In this document: one piece after another, positions 31,267-48,555 of the stretch
Numbering within the stretch: the first letter of the stretch is position 1
Layout: each line of letters opens with the position of its first letter
Virus record (IMG/VR): IMGVR_UViG_3300045988_153230
Origin: a virus
Taxonomy: Duplodnaviria > Heunggongvirae > Uroviricota > Caudoviricetes
Length of the DNA: 49,189 nucleotides
Direction: 5' to 3' (one strand)
Translations under genes and position numbers: made by a program
The notes under the pieces: model-generated
Databases searched by the model: none
The model's input: the letters and a program-made list of their open reading frames with translations, nothing else
What the model was told of the DNA's origin: nothing

Positions 31267-31383
31267 CGGGTTATCTCCGGTTTAACCAGGGCGGGTATCG
31301 CTCGGTTTCGGGTATAACCTTAGGAAATTTTTTCCCACCTGTAAAGCACTTTTTATATAAATCTATAATTATATAATTCTATA
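31267..31383 (-). promoter_or_regulatory. Conserved ~115 bp promoter/leader cassette, copy 1
   Basis: Near-identical to 38340..38452 and 48439..48555; contains AT-rich palindromes (TATAATTATATAATT) and the RBS (GGAGATAACCCG-ATG on minus strand) of the downstream gene. Confidence 0.6.
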
Positions 31384-31966
31384 CCACTTGCCAGAGAGCA
31401 TCATGCAACTGGATACCTCCATTGCACTGGTTGCCCCAGCCATGCCAGCCATCAGGTAAATCACCGCGAGCAAACAGCTCAATACGAGGAACATCGCCTA
31501 ACAGCTTTACCAGCTTGTCACGGACCACATCAGGCTTCCGAGAATGCTCCAGACGAGGCGATGTAAACGACTGAATGATCCCCGCATCAAGACGGGTCGG
31601 CAGTTTGCCTTTTACCGCAAACAAGCAATCTTCACTGTTTGCACGAGTCATATGCCCCATCCCCATCACCAGCTTATCTGGTTGTCGGCTACCACATTTG
31701 TTCCATGTGAAGCCCTTCATGGTCATCAGCCTGAATCCCCATGCTTTCACCACCAGCAACGCTTCTTCTGGCTGAGTCGGAACCCACCACATGGCCAACA
31801 AACACGATTCAGGATTAGCAAGCTGCCAGACAGGAATACGAGCAATATCCTCAGCTTTCATCGTTGGATACTTAAAACCAGCGCCACGATTCCCATCCTT
31901 ACACTTGTCTTTGTATTCCCAGGGGGGATCTGCATAAATCAGATTAAACAATGCAATTGCCTCCAT
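31379..31966 (-). CDS. DNA N6-adenine methyltransferase, MT-A70 family
   Basis: 195 aa; N-terminal LIYADPPWEY motif (DPPW) typical of MT-A70/phage Dam-like methylases. Confidence 0.8.
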   Translation of the reverse strand: MEAIALFNLIYADPPWEYKDKCKDGNRGAGFKYPTMKAEDIARIPVWQLANPESCLLAMWWVPTQPEEALLVVKAWGFRLMTMKGFTWNKCGSRQPDKLVMGMGHMTRANSEDCLFAVKGKLPTRLDAGIIQSFTSPRLEHSRKPDVVRDKLVKLLGDVPRIELFARGDLPDGWHGWGNQCNGGIQLHDALWQVV

Positions 31967-32274
31967 GTTAGTTGTGTCTCCGGCGCTTATCTCCGGCAGT
32001 CATAACGCTGGCCAGCTCTACAGCAAACACAACGAAAAGGGCACTAACCAGACTGATTAATGCCCTTGCCTGTTGTGTGCCGGATATCGCCCGACAACGC
32101 TGTTTTGGTAACACGGCTACAGTTCCGCGCCGCTCCAGCTTTTACCCCTTTGCGGATAACAGGCCCTGCCTGTAACTTAGCCCCACGTTCGCCCGAAATG
32201 CGCACCAGGCACGCATAAAGATGAGCACGAAGGAAGTAACTCCACCGCGCTTATCTTTATGTGTGAGAGTGAAT

Positions 32275-32350
32275 TGGTGGCCCCTACCGGATTTGAACCG
32301 ATGACCGTGCGATTATGAGTCGCCAGCTCTAACCACTGAGCTAAGGGGCC
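32275..32350 (-). tRNA. tRNA with CAU anticodon (Ile2/Met type, ileX-like)
   Basis: Minus-strand sequence GGCCCCTTAGCTCAGTGGTTAGAGCTGGCGACTCATAATCGCACGGTCATCGGTTCAAATCCGGTAGGGGCCACCA folds by eye into acceptor, D, anticodon (loop CTCATAA) and T arms with encoded CCA; the 5' half matches E. coli ileX as I recall it. Confidence 0.85.
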
Positions 32351-32519
32351 ATATTTGATCTGTTTGTCTGGTGTGGCGCCGCGCACGAAAATCCCAGCCA
32401 ATAAATTCAGGATTTTTGGGCGCGGCGGCATATCAGACAAACATGGTTGATGCGTGCGCTCATGAGAAAAGCGCATAGAATGTTGTAACTATATATTTAT
32501 ATAATTATAGAAATATATA

Positions 32520-32729
32520 TTACTTGGGGCAGTTGATTTCCCATGCCCTGTTATGAGCCAGAATATCTTTCTTTGTCTGGCGGTCCATAACATCGATATC
32601 GTGATCAGTCAGGTAGATGGGCTTTACCCAATCACAGGCGGTATCAACCACCACCGGGACGCTTCCACGACTCCCGCAGCTCGCGATCAACATCGTCATC
32701 AGCCATATGGTTAACACTCTGCTGTACAT
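32520..32729 (-). CDS. Rz1-like outer-membrane lipoprotein (o-spanin)
   Basis: 69 aa; signal plus lipobox-like LIASC; overlaps the 3' part of the Rz-like ORF in another frame. Confidence 0.6.
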   Translation of the reverse strand: MYSRVLTIWLMTMLIASCGSRGSVPVVVDTACDWVKPIYLTDHDIDVMDRQTKKDILAHNRAWEINCPK

Positions 32730-32922
32730 TCCCCACCTCTTTTGTCACTTCTATACGCCGCTCCGCAGTGGCTTTTACGGCGGCTGCTTTCTCATTAATG
32801 CGCTGCTTTTCAGCTTCATCTTCGGCCTTTTCTCGCCCCTTCATACGACCAAAACCAAACGCGCCGAATGCAACCAATATAATTGTGCCAATAAATGACA
32901 AAACGGCCTTCAAACCAGTCAT
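32644..32922 (-). CDS. Rz-like i-spanin
   Basis: 92 aa; N-terminal transmembrane segment then charged coiled-coil; ATGA overlap with the endolysin stop. Confidence 0.6.
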   Translation of the reverse strand: MTGLKAVLSFIGTIILVAFGAFGFGRMKGREKAEDEAEKQRINEKAAAVKATAERRIEVTKEVGNVQQSVNHMADDDVDRELRESWKRPGGG

Positions 32923-33461
32923 ACCACCACTCGCTCTTTCATCCAGCCGTAGACAAACGACTCATTCGCCTCGCGCTTCTCCGCCAACTCCAGATAGCGT
33001 TCGCCCTGCGTACAGTTCAGCGACGTCAGCATCACCCGTTCGCCGTCTTTTCCCCGATTCCCAAGATAAGCACGCAGCGCATTAATGGTACGTGGACCGA
33101 TTCGTCCATCTGCATCCAAATCGGGATACAGCTTCCCACGCAGATTGAACACATTCAGCCAGCGTTGAAGCATTTTGGACGCCACTGTTGGCCCCATATT
33201 CACACCGGTATCACACAGCTCTGCGGCAATATCAGAGGATAATGCGGCCACCTGATCAAAGCGTGGTCCGTACCAGTAATCAGCCTCAAGGATTTCTAGT
33301 GCCTGTTCGCGGGTTAAATCGCGCATATCGCCACGGTATCCATGAGCACGGGCAGTGTTCTGAGTAATGCCCCACTTTGTTGGGCCTCCCTTGTCGTCAG
33401 GGTGATCCACATAGCCGCCCTCTTTTCCAAGAATGCTGTTAAAAATCTCATCTTTGGTCAT
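32919..33461 (-). CDS. Endolysin, GH108-type lysozyme with peptidoglycan-binding domain
   Basis: 180 aa; N-terminal ILGKEGGYVDHPDDKGGPTKWGIT motif characteristic of GH108 family endolysins. Confidence 0.8.
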   Translation of the reverse strand: MTKDEIFNSILGKEGGYVDHPDDKGGPTKWGITQNTARAHGYRGDMRDLTREQALEILEADYWYGPRFDQVAALSSDIAAELCDTGVNMGPTVASKMLQRWLNVFNLRGKLYPDLDADGRIGPRTINALRAYLGNRGKDGERVMLTSLNCTQGERYLELAEKREANESFVYGWMKERVVV

Positions 33462-33744
33462 GATTAAATCCTAATGCGTCAACTATCCGCGCCAGATTGC
33501 CCCTGAAATACAGAACAACGATGCAGATAATCAGATTTCCAATAACCACCAGCCAGTGGGATTCTTGATAAAGACCGAACACATAACGGAAGGGAACATT
33601 GGCGTATACAATGACGTAGATATAAGCCAGAAAGGAAACAAATGGACGATGCCTGGAGTCTTTCCGTCGATAAAGCATCAGCGCCATTACTATTACTGTG
33701 CAAAGCACCGCATTAATCAGTGCTGACGGGTCACTGCTTACCAT
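33448..33744 (-). CDS. Membrane protein, probable holin/antiholin
   Basis: ~98 aa from ATG at 33744 (strong GGAGGGGG RBS) with three hydrophobic segments; immediately upstream of the endolysin. Confidence 0.55.
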   Translation of the reverse strand: MVSSDPSALINAVLCTVIVMALMLYRRKDSRHRPFVSFLAYIYVIVYANVPFRYVFGLYQESHWLVVIGNLIICIVVLYFRGNLARIVDALGFNHDQR

Positions 33745-34126
33745 TTGAACCCCCTCCACGTAAGCGGGAAAGCATTCCAAAGATGCTACCGAGATCCTGG
33801 CTGTTTACGAACGTGAGGATTTTAATGGTCAATGCAGCCACAATAACCGCACCAAGCGCATCCAGAGGACGATCGTTGTAGCTGGTCCATTTGGCAAGAA
33901 ATGAGCCAACTAACGGCGCTCCAATCACTCCAACAATGAACGATGTAAAGAAATAGCCAATCAGCTTGAGACGGCTAATATTCACCGCTGTAGCAACATA
34001 GAAAACAGCGCCAGCAAATGCCCCGAATACAACGCCGTAATCAATACCAGTTGCAATACCAAAAACGCTGGCACCCATCAGGCCACCAGCAGCAACGGCC
34101 GTACCGGAAATTGGTTCTGCTGACAT
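33731..34126 (-). CDS. Putative holin
   Basis: 132 aa from ATG at 34126 (GAGGA RBS), multiple Gly/Ala-rich transmembrane segments; first gene of the lysis cassette. Confidence 0.6.
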   Translation of the reverse strand: MSAEPISGTAVAAGGLMGASVFGIATGIDYGVVFGAFAGAVFYVATAVNISRLKLIGYFFTSFIVGVIGAPLVGSFLAKWTSYNDRPLDALGAVIVAALTIKILTFVNSQDLGSIFGMLSRLRGGGSNGKQ

Positions 34127-34139
34127 TGAAATCCTCGTT

Positions 34140-34169
34140 AAAAAAAAGCCCCGCCGAAAAAGGCAGGGC
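34140..34169 (-). terminator. Rho-independent terminator just upstream of the holin gene
   Basis: Minus strand GCCCTGCC-TTTTTC-GGCGGGGC followed by T8, ending ~15 nt before the holin RBS. Confidence 0.55.
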
Positions 34170-34503
34170 TTCATAAAGCAACAAATTACGCGGTAATCGC
34201 TTAACGCAGTTTTACTACGTTAAATGAAACACTACACCCAGTTACCACCTAAAACAAGGTTTTCCCACAAAAAAACCTTCATATCGTGGTTAATTGATCG
34301 ATAAAAAAGCAATGTTCAACTTTTTACCAACCGAACATCCCGACCAGGACTTCCATAATATTCGCCGATATGCCACTGCTTAAGTTGAGTAATCTTCTCC
34401 AACATAACTCCCATAGAGTCCAGTTTCTGCCATGTTTTCGGTTGTATGTGCTTCATTACCCGCTCTGAATATCTGAATACTGCTCGTAGCCTCGCTAAAT
34501 TGC

Positions 34504-35361
34504 TCACTTGTCGCCTCCTTTACGAATCTGTTCCGCCCATTCCCCAAGAGATTTCTCCGCATATTCACCGGACAGGCCATCAATCGGGTGCGGTTCATTA
34601 GCCAACTCTTCTTTCGCTGACAAAATCATGCGTGTAACGTCGAAAACTTCAGCCAAAGGCTTATTGATAAATCCGTGATTGAACGCAGCAGCAAGACGGC
34701 TGGCGGTATAGTTAATCCCCTCGTTGCGTGCTTCCGCACGTACTTCAGCAAGGAAAGCATCGGTGGCTGGGGTTTCGACATTAGGTCGAAGCTCATAATC
34801 ACAAACTCTTTCAATCCATGGTGATACTCTGTCGCATTTCCTCTTCTTGCGTTCACCGACCTTGGTTGCCTGCTGAATAATTACCCCCCAGCAAATGCTT
34901 TCGACCTCTTCGCTCCATCCATCGCAAGCATCGCCTCTATAGTCGTCAATTGCAGCCTCAGCAGCAGCGATAGCCTCCTCAGCAGTTTTGTGACACTCGA
35001 AACTAAATTCAGAGCCATATGAGAAATACATAGCCCCGGCCTTAAGCCCCGCATTCTCCGCCGCCAGCGCCGCACGACAGGCCTCCAGTTCAGCAATACG
35101 CTTGTTTTGGGCTTCCCGCTCATCCAGTAGTGCCAAAGCAACCTTTGGGTTGAACGCGGCAACATAACGAGCGTTGTTCTCTGCATTTTTCTGTCCATCA
35201 AAGCCGGTCCATTTGATAACGTCTTCACATCGTTCATCACCGGGCGTGTGCACCGCATAAGTACCAGTATCCGTCGAAATAAATGCGACCCATTCGTCTG
35301 GTGTTGCCTGTTTTGCTATCTCACGCAGCGCCTGATAATTAATTGCTGTGCTGTTAGTCAT
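34504..35361 (-). CDS. Ead/Ea22-like protein
   Basis: 286 aa from ATG at 35361 (GGAG RBS); Ala-rich coiled region (...ELEACRAALAAENAGLKAG...) and overall pattern resemble lambdoid Ea22-like proteins as I recall them. Confidence 0.55.
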   Translation of the reverse strand: MTNSTAINYQALREIAKQATPDEWVAFISTDTGTYAVHTPGDERCEDVIKWTGFDGQKNAENNARYVAAFNPKVALALLDEREAQNKRIAELEACRAALAAENAGLKAGAMYFSYGSEFSFECHKTAEEAIAAAEAAIDDYRGDACDGWSEEVESICWGVIIQQATKVGERKKRKCDRVSPWIERVCDYELRPNVETPATDAFLAEVRAEARNEGINYTASRLAAAFNHGFINKPLAEVFDVTRMILSAKEELANEPHPIDGLSGEYAEKSLGEWAEQIRKGGDK

Positions 35362-35695
35362 TCCAAGACTCCAGCTCTGTTTCAATTTCTTTATCGATCT
35401 CATCGTTTGTGGCTTCTTCATCCAGATGGTCACGAGCCTCTTTACGATACTTTTCTCTATGCGCTTCATACCAGTTAGAAAACTCCGGCGACCAGCCTGT
35501 GTCCTTGCCGTCGTAGTCAAACTTGGCATTTTTCTCAGCCATGCTTTCAACCATGTTTTCAGCCGTAATAAGCCCCAATTCACGCATCCCACGCAAAAAA
35601 CTTTTACGCATGTGAGGGCTAACTTTCGAATCACAAACAGGCTTAAATTTGACTTCCCAACGGCGAATACAACGTGCATTAAGTGATTTGTTCAT
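35354..35695 (-). CDS. Hypothetical protein
   Basis: 113 aa, acidic C-terminus; operon context. Confidence 0.5.
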   Translation of the reverse strand: MNKSLNARCIRRWEVKFKPVCDSKVSPHMRKSFLRGMRELGLITAENMVESMAEKNAKFDYDGKDTGWSPEFSNWYEAHREKYRKEARDHLDEEATNDEIDKEIETELESWND

Positions 35696-35697
35696 AG

Positions 35698-36550: not shown

Positions 36551-36916
36551 TCACTTCAACTCCTCCCGACGACGTTCCTGAAGCTCTAGCATTGCGGCTC
36601 GGAAATCCTGCCACCACTCCTCATCTGCAACGGGGGTGTTCCGCTCCAGCACCTTGTCCGCATCTGCGATCAGATTTGCCAGACTCTTGTCTGAAATCTT
36701 CGTTACCGGAGTCGTTGGTTGCTCAACCTGCCCGATAGGTTTTATCGTGCTCAAAAGGAGGCGACGGCTGGAAAGTGGCGACCCACAACGGCGCCCATCT
36801 TCCTTGCGATATGTTTCTTTCGGACCAACACACCAAGTTGTCGGCGTTTCGCGTAACTTCACTTTTTTCTCACCATCAATGGTGATGATTATTCCGGTAT
36901 GGGTTTTGATGCTCAT
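36551..36916 (-). CDS. Hypothetical protein
   Basis: 121 aa, ATGA overlap with the upstream gene. Confidence 0.45.
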   Translation of the reverse strand: MSIKTHTGIIITIDGEKKVKLRETPTTWCVGPKETYRKEDGRRCGSPLSSRRLLLSTIKPIGQVEQPTTPVTKISDKSLANLIADADKVLERNTPVADEEWWQDFRAAMLELQERRREELK

Positions 36917-37194
36917 GCCACAGCCCCTCTCAACGGCTTAACTTTGGCTAATAAGGCGTTAAACAACATGGAGTTAGAATTCATGCCAAATGGCAATTCC
37001 GGTTTAGCGGAGTAGTACAGGCAACCATTTATTTTCCTGGTTGTTATCTGTCCTTCGGCAACCATGCTTCTCAGTCTGCAACGCATAGAGTTCTGCGACA
37101 CACCAATGTGCTCCGCGATTACGTCCACTTTTGAACATGGGTGATCGGTCAGGAAATTAATCACATCTTGGGGGTTAATAATTTTGCGTTTCAT
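36913..37194 (-). CDS. Winged-helix DNA-binding protein, FaeA-like
   Basis: 93 aa from ATG at 37194 (AAGGA RBS): ...VINFLTDHPCSKVDVIAEHIGVSQNSMRCRLRSMVAEGQITTRK...; AT-rich palindrome motif immediately upstream. Confidence 0.5.
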   Translation of the reverse strand: MKRKIINPQDVINFLTDHPCSKVDVIAEHIGVSQNSMRCRLRSMVAEGQITTRKINGCLYYSAKPELPFGMNSNSMLFNALLAKVKPLRGAVA

Positions 37195-37271
37195 TGTCGA
37201 GGCGTCCTTATACATTTATATAAATATATAATTCTATATACAGCGGGAGACATCCCGCCGTATGCTTACTG

Positions 37272-38339
37272 TCAGGCTTTCAATAGCGATTCTTTCAGAT
37301 ATCGGGCATCAGCCAGGGCGTTTGGAGTAATCTTGCGAACCCATGCATTACGGGTTGGACTCCACTTAAAGGCGCGTGATTTAAGCAGCGAACGAATGTT
37401 TGCCTCTGGTTTGCCAGGGAAATAAAACAGGATGCGGTTATCCTCTGGATCTATCTCCATAGAAAAGCCGTCGTATTCTTCGCGCTGTGCTCCTGTTACA
37501 GACTTGACCGATTCAAGCTCCTTAATACGGCTCTGTAGTCGTTTGATTTCGGCGTTATTGTTGCTCAGTGCGTATGAAGGGAATCCGATGCGCCCACAGA
37601 AATCTCCGGCCAGTAACTCTTTGGCTTCGCTTTCTGTAAACCTGAGATCGATTAATGCAGAAAGCTGCTGTAATTGGTCTTTTTTGTATTTGCGAATGGC
37701 CTTATTTGCGGCCTTCATTTTGACGTGTGACTTCATGCAGCCTTGCAGCTTACGAAGCAACTTAAATAGCGCATCAGGATCATCAGACGAAATTCCATTA
37801 CGACCAACACCTGCGGCTTTGCTCTCGTAGTGTGATGCTTTACTTTCGCATTCAACAAACGCTTTTCTGAATAACGCATCAGCTTTAGACAAACGGCGGC
37901 GATGGCCTTTCGCGCTATAATGGTCAACTAAAATCGGCTGGCCTAACGGGATCACATCCAACAGGTCATGCGCTCGCTTATGCGCTACCGCTCCTTCTTT
38001 TCTGGCTTTTTCTGCACGAGCAATATATCGGGCAAGACGCGCGTTCTGGCGTTCCTGATAGGTATTTACGTAATCATCTCCGCGCTGCTGCTGTTCAAGC
38101 CATGCTTTGCGCAGCTCTTCTGTTACGTCCACCAGCTCCGCAGGGATACAACCTGTTTGGGCTTCATAAGAGTAACCATCCTCATAGATGCGCCCATCGT
38201 CTTCAACAAAGAAAAAGGTTTCGTGCTCATCGCTTTTGACCATACGACCATTAACATGGCGTAATAGGTAGCCAGTATCAGTGCTTAACAGGCTGTTAGG
38301 GTTGTTGATCCAGTCAGAAATAATTACTTGTTTATTCAT
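37272..38339 (-). CDS. DUF3560-like phage protein
   Basis: 355 aa with C-terminal ...RAFKWSPTRNAWVRK...; first gene after cassette copy 2. Confidence 0.5.
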   Translation of the reverse strand: MNKQVIISDWINNPNSLLSTDTGYLLRHVNGRMVKSDEHETFFFVEDDGRIYEDGYSYEAQTGCIPAELVDVTEELRKAWLEQQQRGDDYVNTYQERQNARLARYIARAEKARKEGAVAHKRAHDLLDVIPLGQPILVDHYSAKGHRRRLSKADALFRKAFVECESKASHYESKAAGVGRNGISSDDPDALFKLLRKLQGCMKSHVKMKAANKAIRKYKKDQLQQLSALIDLRFTESEAKELLAGDFCGRIGFPSYALSNNNAEIKRLQSRIKELESVKSVTGAQREEYDGFSMEIDPEDNRILFYFPGKPEANIRSLLKSRAFKWSPTRNAWVRKITPNALADARYLKESLLKA

Positions 38340-38452
38340 CAGATTTCTCCGGTTTAACCAGGGCGGGTATCGCTCGGTTTCGGGTATAACCTTAGGAAAT
38401 TTTTTCCCACCTGTAAAGCACTTTTTATATAAATCTATAATTATATATTTAT
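38340..38452 (-). promoter_or_regulatory. Conserved ~115 bp promoter/leader cassette, copy 2, in late-promoter position downstream of Q
   Basis: Near-identical to copies at 31267..31383 and 48439..48555; lies directly 3' of the Q-like gene, where lambdoid phages place P_R'/qut. Confidence 0.6.
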
Positions 38453-38508
38453 ATATTTTCGATGTTCCCGATGTCTACACACCATCAAAACAGCTCAAAA
38501 TGACACTT

Positions 38509-40878: not shown

Positions 40879-40996
40879 ACCACGATATGTGGTATTAAAA
40901 CCACATATCGTGAGTTTTTCAATGGGCGAAACAAAAAATAACCTTCTATTTGTGGTCCACCTCTCGTCTTACCATGTGAAAACCACTAAATGTGGT
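40879..40996. promoter_or_regulatory. Divergent promoter/operator region with three ACCAC-N5-GTGGT-type sites
   Basis: ACCACGATATGTGGT (40879..40893), ACCACATATCGTGAG (40900..40914, forming a 12-bp inverted repeat with the first), ACCACTAAATGTGGT (40982..40996), between the divergent early operon and the repressor gene. Confidence 0.55.
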
Positions 40997-41033: not shown

Positions 41034-41690
41034 ATGAAAAGCAACGACGAGAACATCAAGAAAGAAATAGGTCTGCGCATTCAGACTCTACGGAAACAAT
41101 CCGGCATGACTGCCGGAGATCTCCAGCAAGTCACTGGAATAGGCTTAAGCACCTTGCAGAACTATGAGGCCGGATTAAGACAACCATCTATACCTGCCAT
41201 CAAGAAAATTGCGCACGCCCTGAAAGCATCAGCGCCTTATATCGCGTGCTTAACAGATAACCCGTTCCCACCCCAGAATACTAACGCTCCTGTTATTCCT
41301 GGGCTTGTAGCTATAAAAAATGACATAGCATCGCACGCCGGAGAAAAGCCAGTGCTGGCGATAGAACAGGAGATTCTACGAAGCAAGAACATCAACCCAT
41401 CGTCTCTGTCAGTTCTCCAGAGCAACGATGAGTTAATGTCACCAACAATATCCCCAGGCTCCCAAGTCCTGATTGATACAGACGATACAGAGATTCATGA
41501 GGGGATCTATGCCCTTGAAGACAGAAATGGCCTGGTTGTTTTGAGGCACTGTAGAGTCATACCGGGTGACAATGCTGTTATGCTGTCAACCGAAAGGGAT
41601 GCTGAAATGAACACTAAGCATCTGAATAACGAGGAATTTAAGCGTTATAAAGTTCTTGGCCGCGTAGTTAGTGTTGTCAACTGGTTATGA
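41034..41690 (+). CDS. CI-like repressor, HTH plus S24 (LexA-like) peptidase domain
   Basis: 218 aa; N-terminal HTH (...IGLRIQTLRKQSGMTAGDLQQVTGIGLSTLQNYEAG...), C-terminal S24-like (...MSPTISPGSQVLID...FKRYKVLGRVV...). Followed by a hairpin (GCACGGCGAAAGCCGTGC). Confidence 0.8.
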   Translation: MKSNDENIKKEIGLRIQTLRKQSGMTAGDLQQVTGIGLSTLQNYEAGLRQPSIPAIKKIAHALKASAPYIACLTDNPFPPQNTNAPVIPGLVAIKNDIASHAGEKPVLAIEQEILRSKNINPSSLSVLQSNDELMSPTISPGSQVLIDTDDTEIHEGIYALEDRNGLVVLRHCRVIPGDNAVMLSTERDAEMNTKHLNNEEFKRYKVLGRVVSVVNWL

Positions 41691-41732: not shown

Positions 41733-41747
41733 ACCACGCTTTGTGGT
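41733..41747. promoter_or_regulatory. Operator-like palindrome ACCACGCTTTGTGGT
   Basis: Same ACCAC-N5-GTGGT architecture, upstream of ORF 41783..42157 and the par genes. Confidence 0.45.
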
Positions 41748-41782
41748 TTTGACAACATGTGAAAGTATAAAAGAGGCTACGC

Positions 41783-42157
41783 ATGGAATTACATACAGCC
41801 AATAAAAACGAAACTCTGATCACTGCTGGAATCGAAATCCAAGCGTTGAACATAGCGATTGAGTGTATGTTATGCCAAATCATTGATAATGAGAAAGATA
41901 TCGACTGGATAGAATCTATCCTTCATCTGGCATCAGAACAAAAAGTCTGCCTCAAAACGGCCTTACAATACGATGTGCCAGCGGTATCGAAGCTGTGCCA
42001 GCCATTGATGGCATATAACAGGGCTATTATTTCTGTATGCCTCATGATTCTTGATGAAAACACCCCTCTTAGCGACCGCTCAGAAGCTGCTCTAACCCTC
42101 TCACGTAAACAGCGACAGCTAGCAAATCAACTGATATCAACGATAGCTGACCTCTGA
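41783..42157 (+). CDS. Hypothetical protein
   Basis: 124 aa, followed by hairpin AGCGGGCTAACGCCCGCT (42162..42181). Confidence 0.5.
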   Translation: MELHTANKNETLITAGIEIQALNIAIECMLCQIIDNEKDIDWIESILHLASEQKVCLKTALQYDVPAVSKLCQPLMAYNRAIISVCLMILDENTPLSDRSEAALTLSRKQRQLANQLISTIADL

Positions 42158-42195
42158 CTGCAAGCGGGCTAACGCCCGCTTATATGATTATAGAT

Positions 42196-42284
42196 TTATA
42201 TAATTATATAAAACGCTTTTCATCCGCCAAAAAGTTGGTTATGCTTACCTCGTTCTATAAATATAGATTTATAGAATTATATAA
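42196..42284. repeat. AT-rich palindromic repeats upstream of parA (candidate centromere/operator)
   Basis: Perfect 16-bp palindrome TTATATAATTATATAA (42196..42211) and variant TTATAGAATTATATAA (42269..42284), plus ATAGATTTATA direct repeats; a further copy sits between parA and the RHH gene (42962..42974). Confidence 0.5.
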
Positions 42285-42307
42285 CCAAACACATGGAGTC
42301 TCGACAA

Positions 42308-42961
42308 ATGACTATCTCTGTAGGTATTTTCAACGGAAAAGGCGGCGTAACCAAATCAACAATTGCCCGTGCTTTAGCAGTTGCTTATGCAAAGGCTGGC
42401 TGGAATGTATGCCTGATCGATATGGATGTGCTTAACGGAACGGTAACGCGTTGGGTACAACGCAGAATGGCCAACAATATCGAACCAGCAATCGCGGCGC
42501 AGCCGTGCGGCACACCATCACAAGTCCAGAAAATCATCGAATCAGAAATATACGACCTGGTTATCGTCGATGGCGGTGCCTACGCATCTGAATCAGTACC
42601 GAAGCTCTCTGAATTTCTGGATATGGTTATTTTGCCAACCAGATTCTCTACCGATGACCTGGAAACCACCGTTAACACAGCTCACGGCATCGTTAAAAAG
42701 GGTGTACCAATCAAGAAAATTTGCATGGTGTTTTCCGGCGCGGCTGAAAACGAAGCTGACTATATTGAAGCCCAAGAGTACCTGGCTAATACGCCATACT
42801 TTGTTGTCGATAAGTACATTCCCCACAAGCCAGCTCTGAGCAAAGCTCAGGATAAGGGCTTAAGCCTCATTGAGTGCTCATACGTTGCGCCACGCAAAAA
42901 GGCAGACGACGTTATTCAGGGGATTATCAACCAGCTTGAGGCTCTGACTACTGCCGCGTAA
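42308..42961 (+). CDS. parA: ParA-family partition ATPase (type Ib, ParF-like)
   Basis: ~217 aa from ATG at 42308 (GGAG RBS): MTISVGIFNGKGGVTKSTIA... deviant Walker A near the N-terminus. Confidence 0.8.
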   Translation: MTISVGIFNGKGGVTKSTIARALAVAYAKAGWNVCLIDMDVLNGTVTRWVQRRMANNIEPAIAAQPCGTPSQVQKIIESEIYDLVIVDGGAYASESVPKLSEFLDMVILPTRFSTDDLETTVNTAHGIVKKGVPIKKICMVFSGAAENEADYIEAQEYLANTPYFVVDKYIPHKPALSKAQDKGLSLIECSYVAPRKKADDVIQGIINQLEALTTAA

Positions 42962-43004
42962 TATATAATTATAGTTTTATAGATTTATATAAGAGGGGAT
43001 ACAC

Positions 43005-43253
43005 ATGGCCGCACCATCAAAACCACCAAAGAAGAACAGCAAAGGCGTACCGCCATCGATCGAACAACCGCAGGTTTTCGACCCGACTGAAACGCCAACC
43101 AGAACCAAATCAGGTGGGGCACAAATGGCGTTTAACGTCGACCCTGAATTTAAACGCGAGTACAAAACGTTCGCCAGCTCAATGGATATGTCATTGAAAG
43201 AAGTGCTGACAAAATCTTTTGAGTTACTCAAGGCTCAATACAACCAGAAGTAA
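43005..43253 (+). CDS. Ribbon-helix-helix centromere-binding protein (ParG-like)
   Basis: 82 aa; Pro/Lys-rich flexible N-terminal tail and C-terminal ...MAFNVDPEFKREYKTFASSMDMSLKEVLTKSFELLKAQ... with RHH-like beta-alpha-alpha pattern; directly downstream of parA. Confidence 0.65.
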   Translation: MAAPSKPPKKNSKGVPPSIEQPQVFDPTETPTRTKSGGAQMAFNVDPEFKREYKTFASSMDMSLKEVLTKSFELLKAQYNQK

Positions 43254-43503
43254 GAGAAGGTGACGGCCTCCAGCGCCAACTGTTGGCCGTCGCGACACAA
43301 CAAGGGGAATTTGTTATGTCCGAGCAACAATATACACGGTTACTAAAAACTCGTCTAATAGACCTCAAACGGCTGCAAGCTGGTCGCTTATTTGCCCTGC
43401 TATCCACCAGGCCAGAATGGGTACGTGAAGCAGTTCTGAAAGGCTTAATGCGCTCAAGCGTTTAAATTCAACCATAAAAAAGGCCCCCGAAGGGGCCTAA
43501 TCG

Positions 43504-43626
43504 CTACTTGCTGCTAATGTTTATCGTCACATTCAGAGCGTTATCAGTAATCTTCCAACCCTCCCCATGTGGCGTAAACAAAGCTCCAGTAACAACGATA
43601 AAAATACACATGTAGTATTTTTTCAT
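43504..43626 (-). CDS. Small hydrophobic protein (40 aa), candidate type I toxin-like peptide
   Basis: ATG at 43626: MKKYYMCIFIVVTGALFTPHGEGWKITDNALNVTINISSK; a bidirectional hairpin (GGCCCCTTCGGGGGCC, ~43478..43500) follows on the minus strand. Confidence 0.4.
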   Translation of the reverse strand: MKKYYMCIFIVVTGALFTPHGEGWKITDNALNVTINISSK

Positions 43627-43940
43627 TGTGTGGCCCTTACAGGCCGTTTCACGGCATCCCCACCGACGAAAATGACGCGAGAGCAAGCACGCTGTTTGTG
43701 CCTGCGTGGTACGGCAAGTGGATAATCCTTTCCTGAAAGTCAGTGCCCGGGTGCGAATCGGCGGAAAGGCCCCAAGCCATATTACACGTCATACCCTTCA
43801 TAATGAAGGAATAAAAAACGCTTTTATTACATAAGATTACACGTAAATAAGTTAAAAACCTTCATTTTGCATGAGCTAATGAGCTAAATTTTTTTATATG
43901 AATAGTGGACTATTCACCTCAGTTGGGTAAGAATGTAGTT

Positions 43941-44044
43941 GCTGTTTGTGCTTGCGTGGTTGTATTAGTACAACGACGTTATGCTGAAAGGACCGCGAAT
44001 CCGATCAGCACGAAAGAACCGTCCTCAAAAGGACGGTTTTTTTG
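43941..44044 (+). ncRNA. Candidate small RNA with intrinsic terminator
   Basis: Begins with GCTGTTTGTGCTTGCGTGGT, a 19/20 copy of 43691..43710 (the putative 5' leader region of the small ORF on the other strand), and ends in hairpin CCGTCCTCAAAAGGACGG plus T7 (44019..44044). Confidence 0.35.
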
Positions 44045-44597
44045 TTTCTCCCCCTTCCTTCCCAAATGATTCAAATGTTAATGAGAGTGAATCATTTGAT
44101 ATGTTCGATTTAGCGCCGTTATCGACCCAATTTCTGTATGCTTCATCACAACAGTACCTTACAGCAGTTGGAGTAACAGGGATGCCGCCCCCAAATGAGA
44201 ATCCCATTGAGCTAATGCTAACTCTTTCGAATGGCCTATTTCTCAATGCTTCAAACCCCTTGCTATTAAAGTAACGCAGCATCAGAGGTAAAAGGTTATC
44301 CTCGTCCTGACTGATTGTTCCAGGGAAAAAGTAGTAACCATAACGGTTAAATTCGGGAATAAGATTTTCTACCAATGACATGAAATTCACTGGAGTAATA
44401 TTAAGGGCTGTGAAAGCACCAAAAAGGGCGTCAACTGTTAATACAGACTGCCCGTTCTCTATCTTTGTCCATGCGTTTGGTGTTTTTCCAGCAGCTTGAG
44501 CCAGCACTCCTTGATGCACACCTCTTTCTAGCCTAAGTTCTTTTATGATCATTAGGTGAATTGTTGAAAAACATGAGTTTTTTGACTGTTCAATCAT
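44025..44597 (-). CDS. HTH-domain protein with uncharacterised C-terminal domain
   Basis: 190 aa; N-terminal XRE-like HTH (...IKELRLERGVHQGVLAQAAGKTPNAWTKIENGQSVLTVDALFGAF...); C-terminal ~110 aa unrecognised. Confidence 0.55.
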   Translation of the reverse strand: MIEQSKNSCFSTIHLMIIKELRLERGVHQGVLAQAAGKTPNAWTKIENGQSVLTVDALFGAFTALNITPVNFMSLVENLIPEFNRYGYYFFPGTISQDEDNLLPLMLRYFNSKGFEALRNRPFERVSISSMGFSFGGGIPVTPTAVRYCCDEAYRNWVDNGAKSNISNDSLSLTFESFGKEGGETKKPSF

Positions 44598-45046
44598 TTT
44601 TTATCCCCATACTGAATTTTTTCTTGTTCCCGACTTTAACAAAATTCCACAACTCAGGACTGATTGATTCCCTACAGGAACTATACATTCCCATTTTTAG
44701 CATATCAAGAAAATTAAAAGCCCCGCATTCAAACCCACACTATGTGGTTTAGTCTGTTAAAATCCCTCTGTATTGACATAAATGCGCCATTGGTGGACAC
44801 TTTCCGAGCCGTAGCAAAATCTACGGTCGGGATTGGAACCCCGATAATCATCATGGCGCATACCGCGTTAGCGGTTTTTTTATGCGTAAAGCACTGCTAC
44901 ACCCAAATTATGGTGGGGCGTGCGGGGGAGTCGTAAGACTCGCCGGATTCCATGGTGACCGGTAGTTCCAACCCTGTACGTCTCACCACCCAATGATTGG
45001 AACCAGACGGTGGTGAGTATCCTTAACCTTTAAGGGAACTATCACC

Positions 45047-45238
45047 ATGACAAACTTACCCCATGACTATTACGTCAACCTCGTAAAGATCCTTCTCAAG
45101 AAAGCCTCATACGCCGATAAATTCCGCCTGGCTGAAATCATCGAGCGCGAAGCTATGCGCATCGCCAGCAACGATAACGCTGTTTCTGACGCAAAAATCT
45201 CCCTCGTAACCAAAGTAGTTATGGGAGGTGCAAAATGA
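45047..45238 (+). CDS. Hypothetical small protein upstream of antirepressor
   Basis: 63 aa, ATGA overlap with the downstream gene. Confidence 0.45.
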   Translation: MTNLPHDYYVNLVKILLKKASYADKFRLAEIIEREAMRIASNDNAVSDAKISLVTKVVMGGAK

Positions 45239-46416
45239 AAACGCTTCCGACCGTTAACACCCTACAGCCTATCCTGCATAACCAAATCCCCGTTATCACT
45301 ACTGAACTACTGGCAAAGCTATACGGCACAGACGTTGATAACATCAAAAAAAATTACTCACGTAACGCAAACCGCTTTATTGAAGGAAAGCATTTTTTCA
45401 AAGTGGCTGGCGATGAGTTAAAAACTTTGCGAGTGACTTTAAGTCACTCACAAAATTTGCGACTGGTTTTAAACGAGTCACAAAATGAGGTGCAAATTTC
45501 CCCCAAAACTCGCTCTCTCATCCTCTGGACAGAACGCGGGGCTGCACGTCACGCCAAAATGCTTGAAACTAACCAAGCGTGGGATGTGTTCGAACGGCTG
45601 GAAGACTGCTACTTCAACCAGAACGCGCAAACGGCCGCGACCGTTACCGTCTCGCCAAACAATGCTCGTGAGGTTGTCGATACGCTCAACGCCAAACCGA
45701 TGTTTTACATTAAAGTGTGCAACAACGAGCCACTCACAACCTCAGCCGATGTTGCCCAGGCATTCAGCACCACAAACAATTCCATCGTTATGGCCATCGA
45801 TGCGCTACGCATTCCTCGCACGGCTGCGGCGCGTCACTTCTTTAAAGAGCAACGACCGCTGGAAGGAAGCGACCGCGAAATAACAATCTATCGCATGACA
45901 AAAGACGGATTTACCTTACTCATGGAGAGCATCGACGGTCCAAGCGTGAAAGATATCAAGCTGGCCTACATTGAAGCCTTTAACGCTATCAGCAGCGTGT
46001 TAAAAACACAGTACGAGCGTGATCTGGCTAAACGACTGTACCAGGAAAAAACGATTATCCGCGCGGCAACAGAGCATAATCGGCTATTAACGGAACCGAA
46101 CTACAGGAAGGAACTAATCAAGGAGTTTGACAAGGCAACAGGGAAAACCAAAGCGGCGCTAAATCTGCCAGCAATGACTCAGGAAAATGTGATATCAGCC
46201 TTACTTCTTGATCTGCTCAGAAACGCCAGAGCACTGATCAGCTTTGACGAAAACCTGAATCCTCAGCTCAAGCTACTACCACCGACAGGCAAAGTAGTCG
46301 ACCAGGCAGATCACAACAGCATACTCAGCGTACTGGATGCAAACCTACCAGCCAGGACACTACAGGAACTGATAAAGATATCGGCGGATAAACTGGCCGC
46401 AGGTGCAAAACCATAA
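45235..46416 (+). CDS. Antirepressor-like protein (ORF6N and Rha-like domains)
   Basis: 393 aa; N-terminal ...PVITTELLAKLYGTDVDNIKKNYSRNANRFIEGKHFFKVAGDELKTL... (ORF6N-like) and central ...NAKPMFYIKVCNNEPLTTSADVAQAFSTTNNSIVMAIDAL... (Rha/antirepressor-like). Confidence 0.65.
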   Translation: MKTLPTVNTLQPILHNQIPVITTELLAKLYGTDVDNIKKNYSRNANRFIEGKHFFKVAGDELKTLRVTLSHSQNLRLVLNESQNEVQISPKTRSLILWTERGAARHAKMLETNQAWDVFERLEDCYFNQNAQTAATVTVSPNNAREVVDTLNAKPMFYIKVCNNEPLTTSADVAQAFSTTNNSIVMAIDALRIPRTAAARHFFKEQRPLEGSDREITIYRMTKDGFTLLMESIDGPSVKDIKLAYIEAFNAISSVLKTQYERDLAKRLYQEKTIIRAATEHNRLLTEPNYRKELIKEFDKATGKTKAALNLPAMTQENVISALLLDLLRNARALISFDENLNPQLKLLPPTGKVVDQADHNSILSVLDANLPARTLQELIKISADKLAAGAKP

Positions 46417-46450
46417 AACAAAGCGCCCGATTTGGGCGCTTCTTCAATTC

Positions 46451-47086
46451 TTAATATTTCGGTGTAATCAGTAGCGACACGAGCCCTGATTTGTCACGAG
46501 AAACGTAATACTCGCCTCTCTTAGTCTTAAACTCAGCTTTCTGCGTATCAGATTTAACAATCTGCTCTAACTGCGCGATCACTGTGTCTCTATCACTTGA
46601 TGCATCCAAGACTTCAACAGCTACGGCCATAGAAAGCAAGGAATCAGAGCTAGGCTTAGATACTCGCCATAATAACTCTGAAATCTTCCCATCCTTATCA
46701 ACTCTAGCTCGACCGTTAACAGATGAATTGATGGCAAATTCAACGATGTTGTTACCTTGTTTAACTGACTTAATTCTTATAGTGGAGGTGGATTTTCCTG
46801 ATGTAGCGATACCTTCAAGGTCATCATTATATAGCTGCTTAAACTTATCTACGGTCACGCCATCGAAAGCAGCTCCGGTAGTAGCCGTAGTGCCGGAGTC
46901 TTCTGGAATCAAGGCCACAGCAGCAAGAGTATTAACAACAACAAAAGTAGCAATCCCAAGAAACCCACTCACTAAAACAGCTTTGAACTTACTACCAGAA
47001 GATGGGCCACATTGTTTCCGATATGCACCACGAACTACGAAGAAACACAAAATCAGGCTAATAATAAACGCCACCAGCATCCCCAT
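46451..47086 (-). CDS. Membrane-anchored protein of unknown function (candidate superinfection-exclusion/surface protein)
   Basis: 211 aa; two N-terminal hydrophobic segments then a Ser/Thr-rich soluble domain; poly-C tract in the upstream region (47149..47162). Confidence 0.5.
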   Translation of the reverse strand: MGMLVAFIISLILCFFVVRGAYRKQCGPSSGSKFKAVLVSGFLGIATFVVVNTLAAVALIPEDSGTTATTGAAFDGVTVDKFKQLYNDDLEGIATSGKSTSTIRIKSVKQGNNIVEFAINSSVNGRARVDKDGKISELLWRVSKPSSDSLLSMAVAVEVLDASSDRDTVIAQLEQIVKSDTQKAEFKTKRGEYYVSRDKSGLVSLLITPKY

Positions 47087-47721
47087 AGAAATCTCCTTTT
47101 AGATATAAGGGTAAAGCAATATCGTATTGGATCTTCCTTTAGACACAACCCCCCCTCCCCCCATACAGGGTGCCCTTTACCGGAGTTCCGGCCCCTTCTC
47201 AAAAGCATCAAAAAAAGCTCGAGATCGAGTACCGGAACTCATGCCACCAGATAGCTCCACATCGTTTCCAATGCTTCGCCGCCGTGTGCGCCCTGTGGCC
47301 CACAATCATGCCATTGGTCGTCTGATATACCTTCTTCTGCTCATAGAGCACAGGCGAGTTGTCGCACTCCTGCCTTTCTCAGACTCGACTTAGTTTAGAT
47401 CGCTGTTCCTGGCTTGCGTCAGCACACTTTCCCCTTGTACGCATACCCGCGCGCCACTTCGCCCAAAAACACCGAACCCAACGAAGTGGCAAAGACAACG
47501 ACGCGAGCGTGAGTCTGAAATGGGCACCAGTAAAAAAGGGGTTGCAGGCGCAAAAAGATTTGATTATCTTTAGACGCAAGAAAGCCGCCCCAATCAAGAG
47601 GTGTCTTTTTAAATCCAGCCTACCAAGCAAGATTTAAATTTCAGACTGAAAACCGCCCGGCAAGGCGGTTTTTGTCTTTCTGGCGCTTACATTACACCAC
47701 CATAAAACGATCCGTAAAGGA

Positions 47722-47994
47722 TCATTTGATCCCTTGTTCCAATTCTGACGACACTTTAACCTTTTCCCATACAAGGGTTTGCAGCCTTAACAGAATCGCG
47801 TCTTTATCAAGGTGTGAAAGATCCTTCACCATATCGTCAAACGACAGAACGCGAATGGCCATCTCAATGACCCTCGGCGGCTCCCCCTTCTCATATCGCT
47901 TATATGTAGCCAACGATATCCCAAATTCTTCGGCGGCTCGCTCCTGCGTCCAGTTCATCCCACGACGCCATAATTTCAATTCATAACCCGTCAT
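47722..47994 (-). CDS. XRE-family HTH regulator
   Basis: 90 aa from ATG at 47994 (GAGGAGG RBS): MTGYELKLWRRGMNWTQERAAEEFGISLATYKRYEKG... Confidence 0.6.
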   Translation of the reverse strand: MTGYELKLWRRGMNWTQERAAEEFGISLATYKRYEKGEPPRVIEMAIRVLSFDDMVKDLSHLDKDAILLRLQTLVWEKVKVSSELEQGIK

Positions 47995-48020
47995 AGCATC
48001 CTCCTCGCACAATATTAACA

Positions 48021-48047
48021 CTCGCAAAGTGTCAAAATGACACTTTG
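48021..48047. promoter_or_regulatory. Perfect 12-bp inverted repeat (operator-like) upstream of the HTH regulator gene
   Basis: CGCAAAGTGTCA-AAA-TGACACTTTGCG, ~25 nt upstream of the ATG at 47994. Confidence 0.45.
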
Positions 48048-48057
48048 CGTATTGTGT

Positions 48058-48438
48058 TTACTTAACGAGGAATAAAAATGGTTTATTGTTCGGCGGTGTA
48101 ATCGGGGCTGGCTCGCTTTTGCTCATGCGATCAGTGTACCAGGCCAACTCCTTGTCAAAGTAAGCCTGATTAAAATAGGCCATGAATGTAGTTTCAAATC
48201 CATAACGACCGCTAATACGCAGCATCTGATTGCCGTTCTCTGTTTCCAGATATACCTGGGCACGTTCCTGATTCTCCTTCAGCCAGGTTAAAGCCTCATC
48301 GCATGAGGACACACGATACTCATCATCGTAGCAGTCATCGATGCGGCTTGAGGAAGAACGGCAAATCACGCCAACAGAACCAGCCAGGATAGTTTGAATT
48401 TTAAGGAAAGCGTTTTTGCGGATTTTAATCATGCTCAT
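48058..48438 (-). CDS. Hypothetical protein (126 aa), first gene after cassette copy 3
   Basis: ATG at 48438 with the cassette-supplied RBS; its middle part (48278..48332) is duplicated at window positions 1..55. Confidence 0.55.
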   Translation of the reverse strand: MSMIKIRKNAFLKIQTILAGSVGVICRSSSSRIDDCYDDEYRVSSCDEALTWLKENQERAQVYLETENGNQMLRISGRYGFETTFMAYFNQAYFDKELAWYTDRMSKSEPAPITPPNNKPFLFLVK

Positions 48439-48555
48439 CGGGTTATCTCCGGTTTAACCAGGACGGGTATCGCTCGGTTTCGGGTATAACCTTAGGAAAT
48501 TTTTTCCCACCTGTAAAGCACTTTTTATATAAATATATAATTATATAATTCTATG
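48439..48555 (-). promoter_or_regulatory. Conserved ~115 bp promoter/leader cassette, copy 3
   Basis: Near-identical to copies 1 and 2, including TATATAATTATATAATT palindrome and RBS/start context. Confidence 0.6.

Follow-up and report, generated by a model that had tools for sequence, protein, structure and literature searches.

Which control signal is shared by the three near-identical segments that precede three separate genes in the window (the whole stretch of 49,189 nucleotides of viral DNA analysed here)? The window represents a ~48-kb phage-plasmid of E. coli/Yersinia, a temperate myovirus also living as a plasmid, which encodes RepA, ParA and HigBA and whose gene content includes no integrase. 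The segment, called cassette here, is present in three direct copies of 115-120 nt on the minus strand, which are 92-98% identical in pairwise comparison and share ~105 consecutive invariant alignment columns. Each copy ends with the GGAG-N-ATG of the next minus-strand ORF. A repeat of this kind lies far beyond chance and confirms the initial annotation, in which three near-identical copies closing on a ribosome-binding site and ATG were described. The copies are spread over 17 kb, within the early and late regions of the phage, and display the same order of elements: four 8-bp AT-rich iterons, a -35 box (TTTACA), the 17-bp palindrome TGGGAAAAAATTTCCTA, a -10 box (TAAGGT), a 5' hairpin and AAACCGGAGA-N6-7-ATG. 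What had been taken for AT-rich palindromes are direct 8-bp iterons. The cassettes and the genes behind them are as follows:

About 31264..31383, minus strand: cassette copy 1, with array 31354-31383, -35 TTTACA 31340-31345, operator palindrome 31321-31337, -10 TAAGGT 31317-31322, hairpin 31284-31307, SD GGAG 31275-31278 and ATG 31264-31266
31045..31266, minus strand: cargo gene 1, 73 aa, phrog_6621 (function-unknown PHROG)
About 38336..38455, minus strand: cassette copy 2, with array 38426-38455, -35 38412-38417, operator 38393-38409, -10 38389-38394, hairpin 38356-38379, SD 38347-38350 and ATG 38337-38339
37272..38339, minus strand: cargo gene 2, 355 aa, DUF3560, C-terminal part primase-like
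About 48436..48555, minus strand: cassette copy 3, with array 48526-48555, -35 48512-48517, operator 48493-48509, -10 48489-48494, hairpin 48456-48479, SD 48447-48450 and ATG 48436-48438
48058..48438, minus strand: cargo gene 3, 126 aa, phrog_8090 (function-unknown PHROG)

The palindrome TGGGAAAAAATTTCCTA fills the 17-bp promoter spacer and overlaps the -10 box (TTTACA-N17-TAAGGT). TAAGGT is a weak match to a -10 box, and the cassettes were not picked up by a generic promoter scan. The predicted transcript start lies about 7 nt downstream of TAAGGT, 1-3 nt before the conserved stem-loop and ~45 nt before the ATG. The 17-bp operator motif T(G/A)GGAAA-N3-TTTCCTA was found at four sites in the window against 0.05 expected, all of them in promoters. 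The fourth site belongs to a promoter located directly upstream of a gene for a small XRE-type helix-turn-helix (HTH) protein, and this promoter carries neither an iteron array nor a hairpin leader:

1014..1042, minus strand: fourth promoter, TTGCCA-N17-TACCAT, with the palindrome TAGGAAAAGATTTCCTA at 1018-1034 in the spacer
700..987, minus strand: korC-like gene, 95 aa when translated from the third ATG (700-999 in the ORF call), XRE-type HTH

The initial annotation had mentioned neither the palindrome at 1018-1034 nor five sites, described below, where arrays occur alone.

The 95-aa protein is 49% identical (E=1e-22) to P0131, a protein whose 90% cluster includes a member deposited as KorC. 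P0131, P0148 and P0078 all sit in the korC slot of IncP-like plasmids, between klcA-klcB and kleA-kleE-korA-incC-korB. When the repressor profile was compared with PDB sequences, the HTH domain of AcrIF24 was matched with E=3.7e-7 and Aca3 more weakly (E=0.016). From its sequence, the 95-aa protein is a candidate repressor of all four palindrome-bearing promoters, and since its own promoter carries the same palindrome, the gene is proposed to regulate itself. The palindrome in this promoter is conserved in the relatives L001, L002, L004, L005, L006 and L036. The regulator gene stands apart from the cassettes, at a circular distance of 1.8-38 kb.

The cassette itself recurs in the IncP-like plasmids, where the order of elements is -35, TAGGGCAnnnTGCCCTA, -10, a GGCCGGGCA...GGTC hairpin and AACCGGAGA-ATG. 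Each plasmid has two to four copies, which precede klcA, kleA and small ORFs, and no Q gene is present. The resemblance to the KorC/O_C regulon of IncP-1 (RK2/RP4) and IncU (RA3) plasmids extends from the homologous repressor to the 17-bp TAGG-N9-CCTA palindrome, which lies in the promoter spacer and agrees in frame and position with that of the IncP-like loci, to the occurrence of several near-identical promoter copies per replicon (as in the klcA, kleA and kleC promoters of kil-kor), to the GC-rich leader hairpin and the AACCGGAGA SD block of the IncP-like relatives and to a second operator just upstream of the -35 box. Cargo which includes antirestriction genes and an expected induction on entry are further common traits; klcA of RP4, which is repressed by KorA and KorC, was ~120-220-fold induced in new transconjugants (PMC7314908). 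The window differs in that its host is a temperate myovirus/plasmid and not a conjugative plasmid, its korC-like gene is driven by an own array-less promoter and is not part of a klcA operon, its cargo is unrelated to klc/kle, and its cassettes are dispersed over the genome.

Promoters controlled by Aca proteins show a comparable design. In AcrIF24, to which the regulator of the window is related in its HTH sequence, a 17-bp inverted repeat is located between -35 and -10 of TTGCAT-N17-TATAGT (PMC9638941), exactly as in the cassette. Control of multiple operons and 5'UTR RNA motifs have been described for Aca systems (NAR 2026, PMC13551039), and the window likewise combines one regulator, several operons and a conserved structured 5'UTR. 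However, the regulator gene does not follow the cargo within one operon, no known acr gene is present, and a second input by a partition protein is not described for Aca systems. Repeated promoter elements before establishment/antirestriction genes are also known as CUP repeats in IncN pKM101 and IncW R388, where a small autoregulated HTH repressor, ArdK, silences the genes behind the repeated element (PMC9723621, PMC6289460). This likeness is functional only, as the elements share no sequence similarity: ArdK belongs to the KorA family and its direct repeats lie at -35, in contrast to the KorC-like protein and the spacer palindrome of the window, where no KORA domain is encoded.

Taken with these comparisons, it is likely that the cassette is a self-contained repressible unit of the kil-kor (KorC/O_C) type. 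Sequence and comparison both support the initial annotation in its view of a promoter, leader and ribosome-binding-site cassette through which a single control signal governs three separate genes. The 95-aa protein, as a dimer, would bind the spacer palindrome and block RNA polymerase at the sigma-70 promoter, and the same palindrome would provide autoregulation of the korC-like gene.

The same annotation had compared copy 2 with P_R'/qut of lambdoid phages, naming a Q-like gene upstream of it. In such a scheme the cassettes would be Q-dependent late promoters, from which antitermination by the 125-aa product of that gene reaches the lysis and packaging operons. Copy 2 indeed lies directly behind the gene that closes the leftward early operon, and this position is the only point of likeness to P_R'/qut. 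The 125-aa protein has an HTH-like pair of helices in its C-terminal part and matches NCBIfam PA0613_fam weakly over its full length, below threshold (E=2.5e-4). Several intrinsic terminators separate the cassettes from the lysis/virion genes, so some form of antitermination, or else separate late promoters, must operate in this genome. The 125-aa ORF, however, is not recognisable as a Q protein: it gave no Pfam hit, none of the Q families of Pfam, PHROGs or NCBIfam was matched, it belongs to the function-unknown phrog_5285, and its AF2 model (low confidence, pLDDT 59) had no Foldseek hit at E<2. The transcription units do not fit either. The ATG follows the predicted start after ~45 nt; by inspection, the initially transcribed region contains no -10-like pause hexamer; the window has neither a promoter-proximal terminator nor a long late operon of the lambdoid kind, and three copies instead of a single promoter. 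The claim that the cassettes head lysis and packaging operons was not borne out, as the copy 1 unit consists of the 73-aa gene alone, which is followed after 22 nt by a strong intrinsic terminator (31023-31000), and the lysis genes lie behind another terminator (34172-34145). Copy 3 adjoins higBA in the plasmid-maintenance region, where it is preceded by the higA terminator (48587-48565). Plasmids devoid of the 125-aa gene, and indeed of phage genes, carry the same type of cassette. The Q-dependent reading is therefore disfavoured, and we regard it as extremely improbable.

The array upstream of the -35 box brings in a further regulator. Its unit, TATAKAWT, repeats with a strict 8-bp period, four times at each site, and the four-unit TATA-N4 array was found at eight loci in the window versus none expected. 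Five of these AT-rich arrays lie outside the cassettes, mostly around a partition locus:

42181-42210, plus strand: array A, in the parA promoter region (42181..42284)
42217-42245, plus strand: parA core promoter, TTTTCA-N17-TATGCT, between arrays A and B
~42256-42284, plus strand: array B, on the other side of the parA core promoter
42293..42961, plus strand: parA, 222 aa, small Walker-type partition ATPase
42962-42991, plus strand: array C, between parA and the 82-aa ORF
43005..43253, plus strand: gene of a ParG/omega-like small protein, 82 aa
~37207-37242, minus strand: array D, without O_C promoter, directly before the SD of a 100-aa MarR-like ORF (36913-37215)
32490-32519, minus strand: array E, upstream of a tRNA gene (32278-32350)

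No core promoter is obvious downstream of arrays C, D and E, so the arrays are not simply promoter operators. Array D is reached from cargo gene 2 after a hairpin lacking a U-tract. ParA belongs to the CbiA/ParA/MipZ group (NCBIfam ParA_partition, E=6e-22; phrog_164) and has no N-terminal HTH. In the 82-aa protein, a putative strand and two helices are accompanied by a disordered Pro/Lys tail; it is the candidate iteron-binding protein. In some type Ib partition systems, the small centromere-binding protein is also a repressor, as in ParF/ParG-parH of TP228 and omega of pSM19035, and dispersed centromeres are known from the KorB O_B sites of RK2 and from sopC of N15. The window resembles type Ib loci in its small Walker ParA with a ~80-aa partner bearing a disordered tail and a strand-helix-helix-like C-terminus, and in the short-unit arrays, which are found at the par promoter as well as at further promoters of the replicon. 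It differs in that the unit (TATAKAWT, four per array) and the putative ribbon-helix-helix (RHH) protein are unrelated in sequence to ParG/omega, and that the arrays are joined to a KorC-type operator in a single cassette. Neither a KORA-domain protein nor a GTTTAGCTAAAC site was found in the window, where the arrays, linked to a type Ib ParA and its small partner, occupy the O_A position and replace KorA/O_A.

The four iterons upstream of -35 would most likely be bound by the 82-aa ParA partner, and those flanking the parA promoter may act as both centromere and operator. Since the same iterons occur at the parA promoter and in the cassettes, a second repressor input at the cassettes is proposed; it would be independent of the first and would take the position of the KorA operator in IncP plasmids. 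It is also conceivable, if rather unlikely, that the KorC-type promoter is correctly identified and that the arrays are UP elements, curved DNA, nucleation sites for host nucleoid proteins (H-NS, IHF, Fis) or sites of another protein, for which the 124-aa ORF at 41783-42157 is a candidate. The arrays are extremely AT-rich and located at -37 to -70, the region in which UP elements are active, H-NS typically targets TATA-rich tracts, and both the RHH fold and the iteron binding of the 82-aa protein are putative. The 124-aa ORF, moreover, lies beside parA and is conserved in all the phage-plasmids. Several observations argue for the small protein instead: the strict periodicity with four units per site; the position of the arrays around the parA promoter and in the gap that separates parA from the small ORF, which resembles that in type Ib par loci; and arrays where no promoter follows, as at sites C and D. 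The unit type also switches from TATAKAWT to a TTTAAATA-type together with the lineage of the small protein, although only three types are available. Units of the TTTAAATA-type are found in the Serratia elements, whose small proteins are 71% identical to each other but only 40-50% to that of the window. A further case is the conjugative plasmid L003, which is unrelated to the window. Apart from ParA (46% identity), higBA and the small protein (39%, E=4e-14) it has nothing in common with the backbone of the window, yet it also carries dispersed arrays. Arrays lie inside its virB operon with no promoter following, its cassette adjoins higBA as well, and no homolog of the 124-aa ORF is present.

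Our best reading is that of a KorC/Aca-type regulon, co-repressed by the partition protein, which would express establishment or anti-defence genes on cell entry. As a naive cell contains no repressor, the three cargo genes are expected to fire in a burst when the DNA enters (zygotic induction), and silencing would follow as the repressors accumulate.

Comparison of lineages showed that the set of three cassettes, together with a single korC-like promoter lacking an array, is also found in the Salmonella lineages and in two phage-plasmids of Serratia with different virion modules; at least four diverged lineages retain this count. Lineage-specific substitutions are common to all three cassette copies. 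Alternatively, the repeats could be recombination scars or remnants of mobile, moron-type promoter elements, without shared regulation today. The genes at equivalent positions do differ between lineages, the copies evolve in concert, and one copy in L003 is truncated by IS26. Against this stands the higher conservation of the cassette relative to the flanking coding sequence: between E. coli and Salmonella, nucleotide identity is 87-89% for the cassette and 69-71% for the cargo CDS. The retention of operator and repressor together, of the full set of three cassettes and an autoregulated repressor promoter, and of co-varying hairpin stems also speaks against this explanation, which we consider very unlikely.

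The GC-rich leader hairpin is common to the phage-plasmid of the window and the IncP-like plasmids, and its stems co-vary across lineages. In the alignment, 90% of the hairpin cells are paired versus 11-48% in slid registers, and four of eight pairs are changed on both sides. The covariation score, drawn from about six independent lineages, is 0.335 (versus 0.184; 0 of 500 shuffles reached it), and RNAalifold recovered the same stems. Folding of single sequences is weak (z from -0.6 to -2.1). The covariance check proposed in the initial annotation came out in favour of RNA folding in part of the leader; of the segments it had named, GGAAATTTTTTCC does not belong to the leader but is the DNA operator in the spacer, upstream of the predicted start. 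The stem-loop, followed by a strong SD, probably stabilises the mRNA or is a further regulatory target.

More tentatively, and with low probability, the cassette could be an undescribed three-layer switch, in which a KorC/Aca-family repressor acting on DNA is combined with the small centromere-binding protein of the partition system as a genome-wide co-repressor acting through dispersed iterons and with an RNA operator in the 5' hairpin. If so, the second layer would tie the shutdown of entry genes to the assembly of the segregation complex, and the hairpin, kept from IncP plasmids to phage-plasmids, would be a target comparable to the 5'UTR that Aca2 recognises in its own transcript. The 73-aa, 126-aa and DUF3560 genes and their replacements in other lineages would then be a reservoir of new anti-defence/establishment proteins, with recombination at the cassette as the means of exchange. 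Searches of Pfam, NCBIfam and PDB with the window's three cargo proteins gave no match to known anti-defence proteins and no solved relative. In the distant relative L028, an ArdB/KlcA protein (PF03230, E=8e-31) is encoded behind a cassette, and in L036 a gene of the Lar family lies behind an array-only site of the site D type, not behind a cassette.

Three near-identical copies of a ~120-bp cassette, as claimed in the initial annotation, were confirmed on the minus strand at 31263-31382, 38335-38454 and 48435-48554 (92-98% identity, ~105 invariant columns). As also described there, all three run into the ATG of the following minus-strand ORF. Each copy shows the following parts, in minus-strand reading order:

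Iterons: four 8-bp units, consensus TATAKAWT
-35 box: 6 nt after the units, TTTACA
Palindrome and -10 box: GG, then a 17-bp near-palindrome TGGGAAAAAATTTCCTA, whose final TA opens the -10 box TAAGGT (17-nt spacer)
Predicted start: ~7 nt from the -10 box
Leader: stem-loop AACCG-A-GCG[AUACC]CGC-CC-UGGUU
Translation start: AAACCGGAGA, 6-7 nt, ATG

The cassettes escaped a generic sigma-70 scan, TAAGGT scoring under its threshold. The Rfam gathering scan of the window gave no match inside them, and elsewhere returned ryfA, C4, isrK and one tRNA.

The cassettes had been proposed to head the lysis and packaging operons under a Q-like protein. Copy 1 is followed by a 73-aa gene and, 22 nt further, by a strong terminator; copy 2 by the DUF3560 gene, a hairpin without U-tract and another array; copy 3 by the 126-aa gene and a hairpin. 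The lysis genes lie behind an additional terminator (34172-34145). The cassettes are therefore not at the head of these operons. The supposed Q-like protein, a 125-aa ORF, gave no Pfam hit, a PHROG without function and only a sub-threshold NCBIfam match (PA0613_fam); its low-confidence AF2 model retrieved no significant match from the PDB with Foldseek, and a literature search on PA0613 yielded nothing functional. The three cargo proteins had no informative match, PDB searches included, and the literature search on DUF3560 was uninformative. A role of the DUF3560 protein as replication initiator was dropped, as an IncFII-type RepA is present.

In the window four sites match the palindrome TRGGAAA-N3-TTTCCTA, where 0.05 would be expected. 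The segment GGAAATTTTTTCC, previously thought able to fold in RNA, lies upstream of the predicted start and is instead a DNA operator. Outside the cassettes, the fourth site is:

1018-1034: palindrome in the spacer of TTGCCA-N17-TACCAT, directly upstream of a 95-99-aa ORF (700-999), with no array and no hairpin

The Yersinia phage, two Salmonella plasmids and two Serratia phage-plasmids all retain this arrangement of palindrome, spacer and ORF. The 95-aa protein carries an XRE-type HTH. A profile of four orthologs, searched against PDB sequences, matched the HTH domain of AcrIF24 (E=3.7e-7) and Aca3 (E=0.016). AcrIF24 has the same architecture of operator in promoter as the palindrome promoters of the window, its 17-bp inverted repeat sitting within TTGCAT-N17-TATAGT (PMC9638941). 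The same profile retrieved 163 homologs; three of them, sampled with their genomic context, lie on IncP-like plasmids between klcA (Antirestrict)-klcB and kleA-kleE-korA-incC-korB, which is the korC slot. The 95-aa protein is 49% identical (E=1e-22) to P0131, from a cluster of which one member was deposited as KorC. Membership of the ArdK/KorA family was rejected, since the protein has no KORA domain and the operator is of a different type. Judged from sequence, the korC-like gene is a putative repressor gene that would regulate itself and form a small regulon with the three cassettes.

The IncP-like plasmids carry two to four cassette copies each, composed of a -35 box, TAGGGCAnnnTGCCCTA, a -10 box, a GGCCGGGCA...GGTC hairpin and AACCGGAGA-ATG, which precede klcA, kleA and small ORFs. 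In two IncP-like loci a KorA operator lies immediately upstream of the -35 box, a position which in the window's cassettes is taken by the partition-linked iterons. The role of KorC as a global repressor in RK2/RP4 and RA3 is established, and RP4 klcA, which is under KorA and KorC repression, is induced ~120-220-fold in fresh transconjugants (PMC7314908, PMC7414963). The RK2/RA3 KorC regulon is among the closest described systems, as are the Aca-controlled anti-defence operons, including their multi-operon control and structured 5'UTRs (PMC13551039); the CUP/ArdK regulon is close on functional grounds. The literature search found no paper linking KorC with phage-plasmids, and the top-ranked papers containing both 'KorC' and 'anti-CRISPR' apparently make no connection between them in title or abstract. 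Neither a 5' hairpin common to IncP plasmids nor iterons in place of the KorA operator were described in the literature searched.

A pattern scan of genome contigs gave only two matches, in Zavarzinia and a Pseudomonadaceae MAG, both of which are true cassettes. The core of operator, hairpin and AAACCGGAGA was observed beyond Enterobacterales, in L023/L029 (Zavarzinia aquatilis, an alphaproteobacterial genome) and in L028 (the Pseudomonadaceae MAG). Upstream of the -35 box, L028 has another 8-nt periodic block (TTAATACG GAATAACG AAAATAACG).

Folding and covariance analysis of the leader, recommended in the initial annotation, was borne out for the hairpin, whose stems co-vary among 19 distinct leaders, whereas single-sequence folding of the whole cassette was weak (z -0.6 to -2.1), for which reason an elaborate riboregulator was rejected. 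The stem sequences vary by lineage with pairing kept:

Window: AACC/GGUU and GCG/CGC
Serratia: GGCC/GGCC and GGC/GCC
Zavarzinia: CGGC/GCCG and GGGC/GCCC
Proteus IncP-like plasmid: GCCC/GGGC

In the 19 leaders, 90% of cells are paired, against 11-48% in slid registers, and in four of the eight pairs both partners have changed. A covariation score of 0.335 compares with 0.184 in shuffles (0/500); G·U pairing is common, and RNAalifold returned these stems as well. A hairpin beginning 1-3 nt after the predicted start points to a role as 5'-terminal stabiliser or as regulatory RNA site.

The AT-rich 5' part of the cassette belongs to a repeat family of its own, an 8-nt periodic block detected at eight loci with a repeat finder. 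The pattern TATA-N4 x4 gave 12 matches, exactly at these eight array loci, and none in 100 shuffles. Arrays lie on both sides of the parA core promoter, and another lies between parA and the 82-aa ORF; arrays D and E stand before other genes and lack the palindrome promoter. The parA promoter has the layout of the cassette (array, TTTTCA-N17-TATGCT) plus the extra array downstream. In two Serratia phage-plasmids the architecture is kept whole with units of the TTTAAATA type, and their small proteins share 71% identity with one another and 40-50% with the 82-aa protein. In the latter, a Pro/Lys tail is disordered, and a short hydrophobic-polar alternating segment precedes two C-terminal helices. 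Its homolog on pTP33, where AT-rich arrays are not obvious, gave weak RHH hits. Taken together, the arrays at par loci, the unit type differing with the small protein and the protein features make a ParG/omega-like 82-aa protein, with a possible RHH fold, the most likely ligand of the iterons.

The conjugative plasmid L003 has in common with the window only higBA, ParA (46%) and a homolog of the 82-aa protein (39%, E=4e-14), and carries arrays of the same kind at the par promoter, between parA and the small ORF and inside the virB operon. This MOBC/MPF_T plasmid (NZ_CP037908.1) is otherwise unrelated to the window. Its AT-rich 8-bp arrays at 11983-12018 and 13756-13793 occupy virB/T4SS intergenic gaps directly before ribosome-binding sites, a position from which the partition protein may control transfer genes. 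In the window, a tRNA gene (32278-32350, minus strand; tRNA-Met in the Yersinia phage annotation) lies directly downstream of an iteron array (32490-32519) without the palindrome promoter. Two proteins with ParB/Srx N-terminal domains, assigned by homology to a Salmonella plasmid's annotation, are encoded at 27548-29544, upstream of the terminase genes and separate from the ParA and 82-aa pair.

The replicon genes are:

1630-2607: RepA, IncFII-type
42293-42961: small ParA

HigBA, a CI-like repressor and a P1-type C4/antirepressor module are also encoded and no integrase was found in the window, which is therefore a phage-plasmid. The phage-plasmid is common. Searching PLSDB with the cassette gave 65 complete plasmids of ~48 kb, mostly from E. 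coli and non-mobilizable, among them one from ATCC 25922, almost always with three cassette places per record. The same phage-plasmid was also isolated as Yersinia pestis phages, vB_YpM_39/41/44 being matches of the window; the distinct 32-kb phage vB_YpM_HQ103 was rejected. Annotations list every gene treated here as hypothetical.

In any one lineage the three copies carry the same substitutions, which indicates that they evolve in concert. Between E. coli and Salmonella, identity is 87-89% for the cassette, 69-71% for the cargo CDS and 68% for the korC-like CDS. The cargo genes vary among lineages: the gene that the cassette drives in the Pseudomonadaceae MAG encodes an ArdB/KlcA antirestriction protein (E=8e-31). 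Arrays of the site-D type stand without the palindrome promoter before a Lar-family restriction-alleviation gene in Serratia phage-plasmid L036 (13656-13712) and before a DGQHR-domain gene in Salmonella plasmid L002 (27954-27990); variable cargo related to defence seems to occupy this slot as well.

The cassette is thus read as a KorC/Aca-type promoter-leader module in triplicate, predicted to be repressible through operator binding. Its likely role would be a burst of establishment or anti-defence gene expression on entry, with silencing afterwards. With this reading, the 95-aa protein and four promoters acquire a function open to testing, the kil-kor logic of plasmids, a burst at entry and silencing thereafter, is extended to a virus, and KorC is tied to anti-CRISPR-associated regulators through sequence and operator architecture. 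The three variable slots per genome are places to seek new anti-defence or establishment genes.

Several further features were observed. Bases 51-109 repeat 49131-49189 (circular overlap) and bases 1-55 duplicate 48278-48332 inside the 126-aa gene. The window end is colinear with the Yersinia phage genome, so the first ~50 nt are misplaced, either as an assembly artefact or as a 798-bp deletion variant with 5-bp microhomology (GTAGC/GTAAC); the deletion, if real, would take out copy 3 of the cassette together with higA, part of higB and part of the 126-aa gene. The Rfam matches to ryfA, isrK and C4 antisense RNA (43476-43774, minus strand; 44808-44881 and 44906-44993, plus strand) are immediately followed, at 45047-46416 on the plus strand, by a 63-aa ORF and a 393-aa antirepressor. 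Together they make up an antirepressor module of the P1/P7 immI-like kind, under antisense control, and the window has a CI-like S24 repressor (41034-41690) besides. The interval from the cI-like gene to the leftward early operon contains a perfect 32-bp palindrome, CACGATATGTGGTATTAAAACCACATATCGTG (40881-40912), which could be a CI operator or a bidirectional terminator. Direct repeats occur at 6867-7259 and 12617-12901, with three copies of ~93 nt in a tail-fibre ORF and three copies at 120-nt spacing in the tape-measure ORF. A Hin-type invertase (2789-3343) adjoins tail-fibre and assembly genes of opposite orientation, an arrangement that points to an invertible host-range segment.
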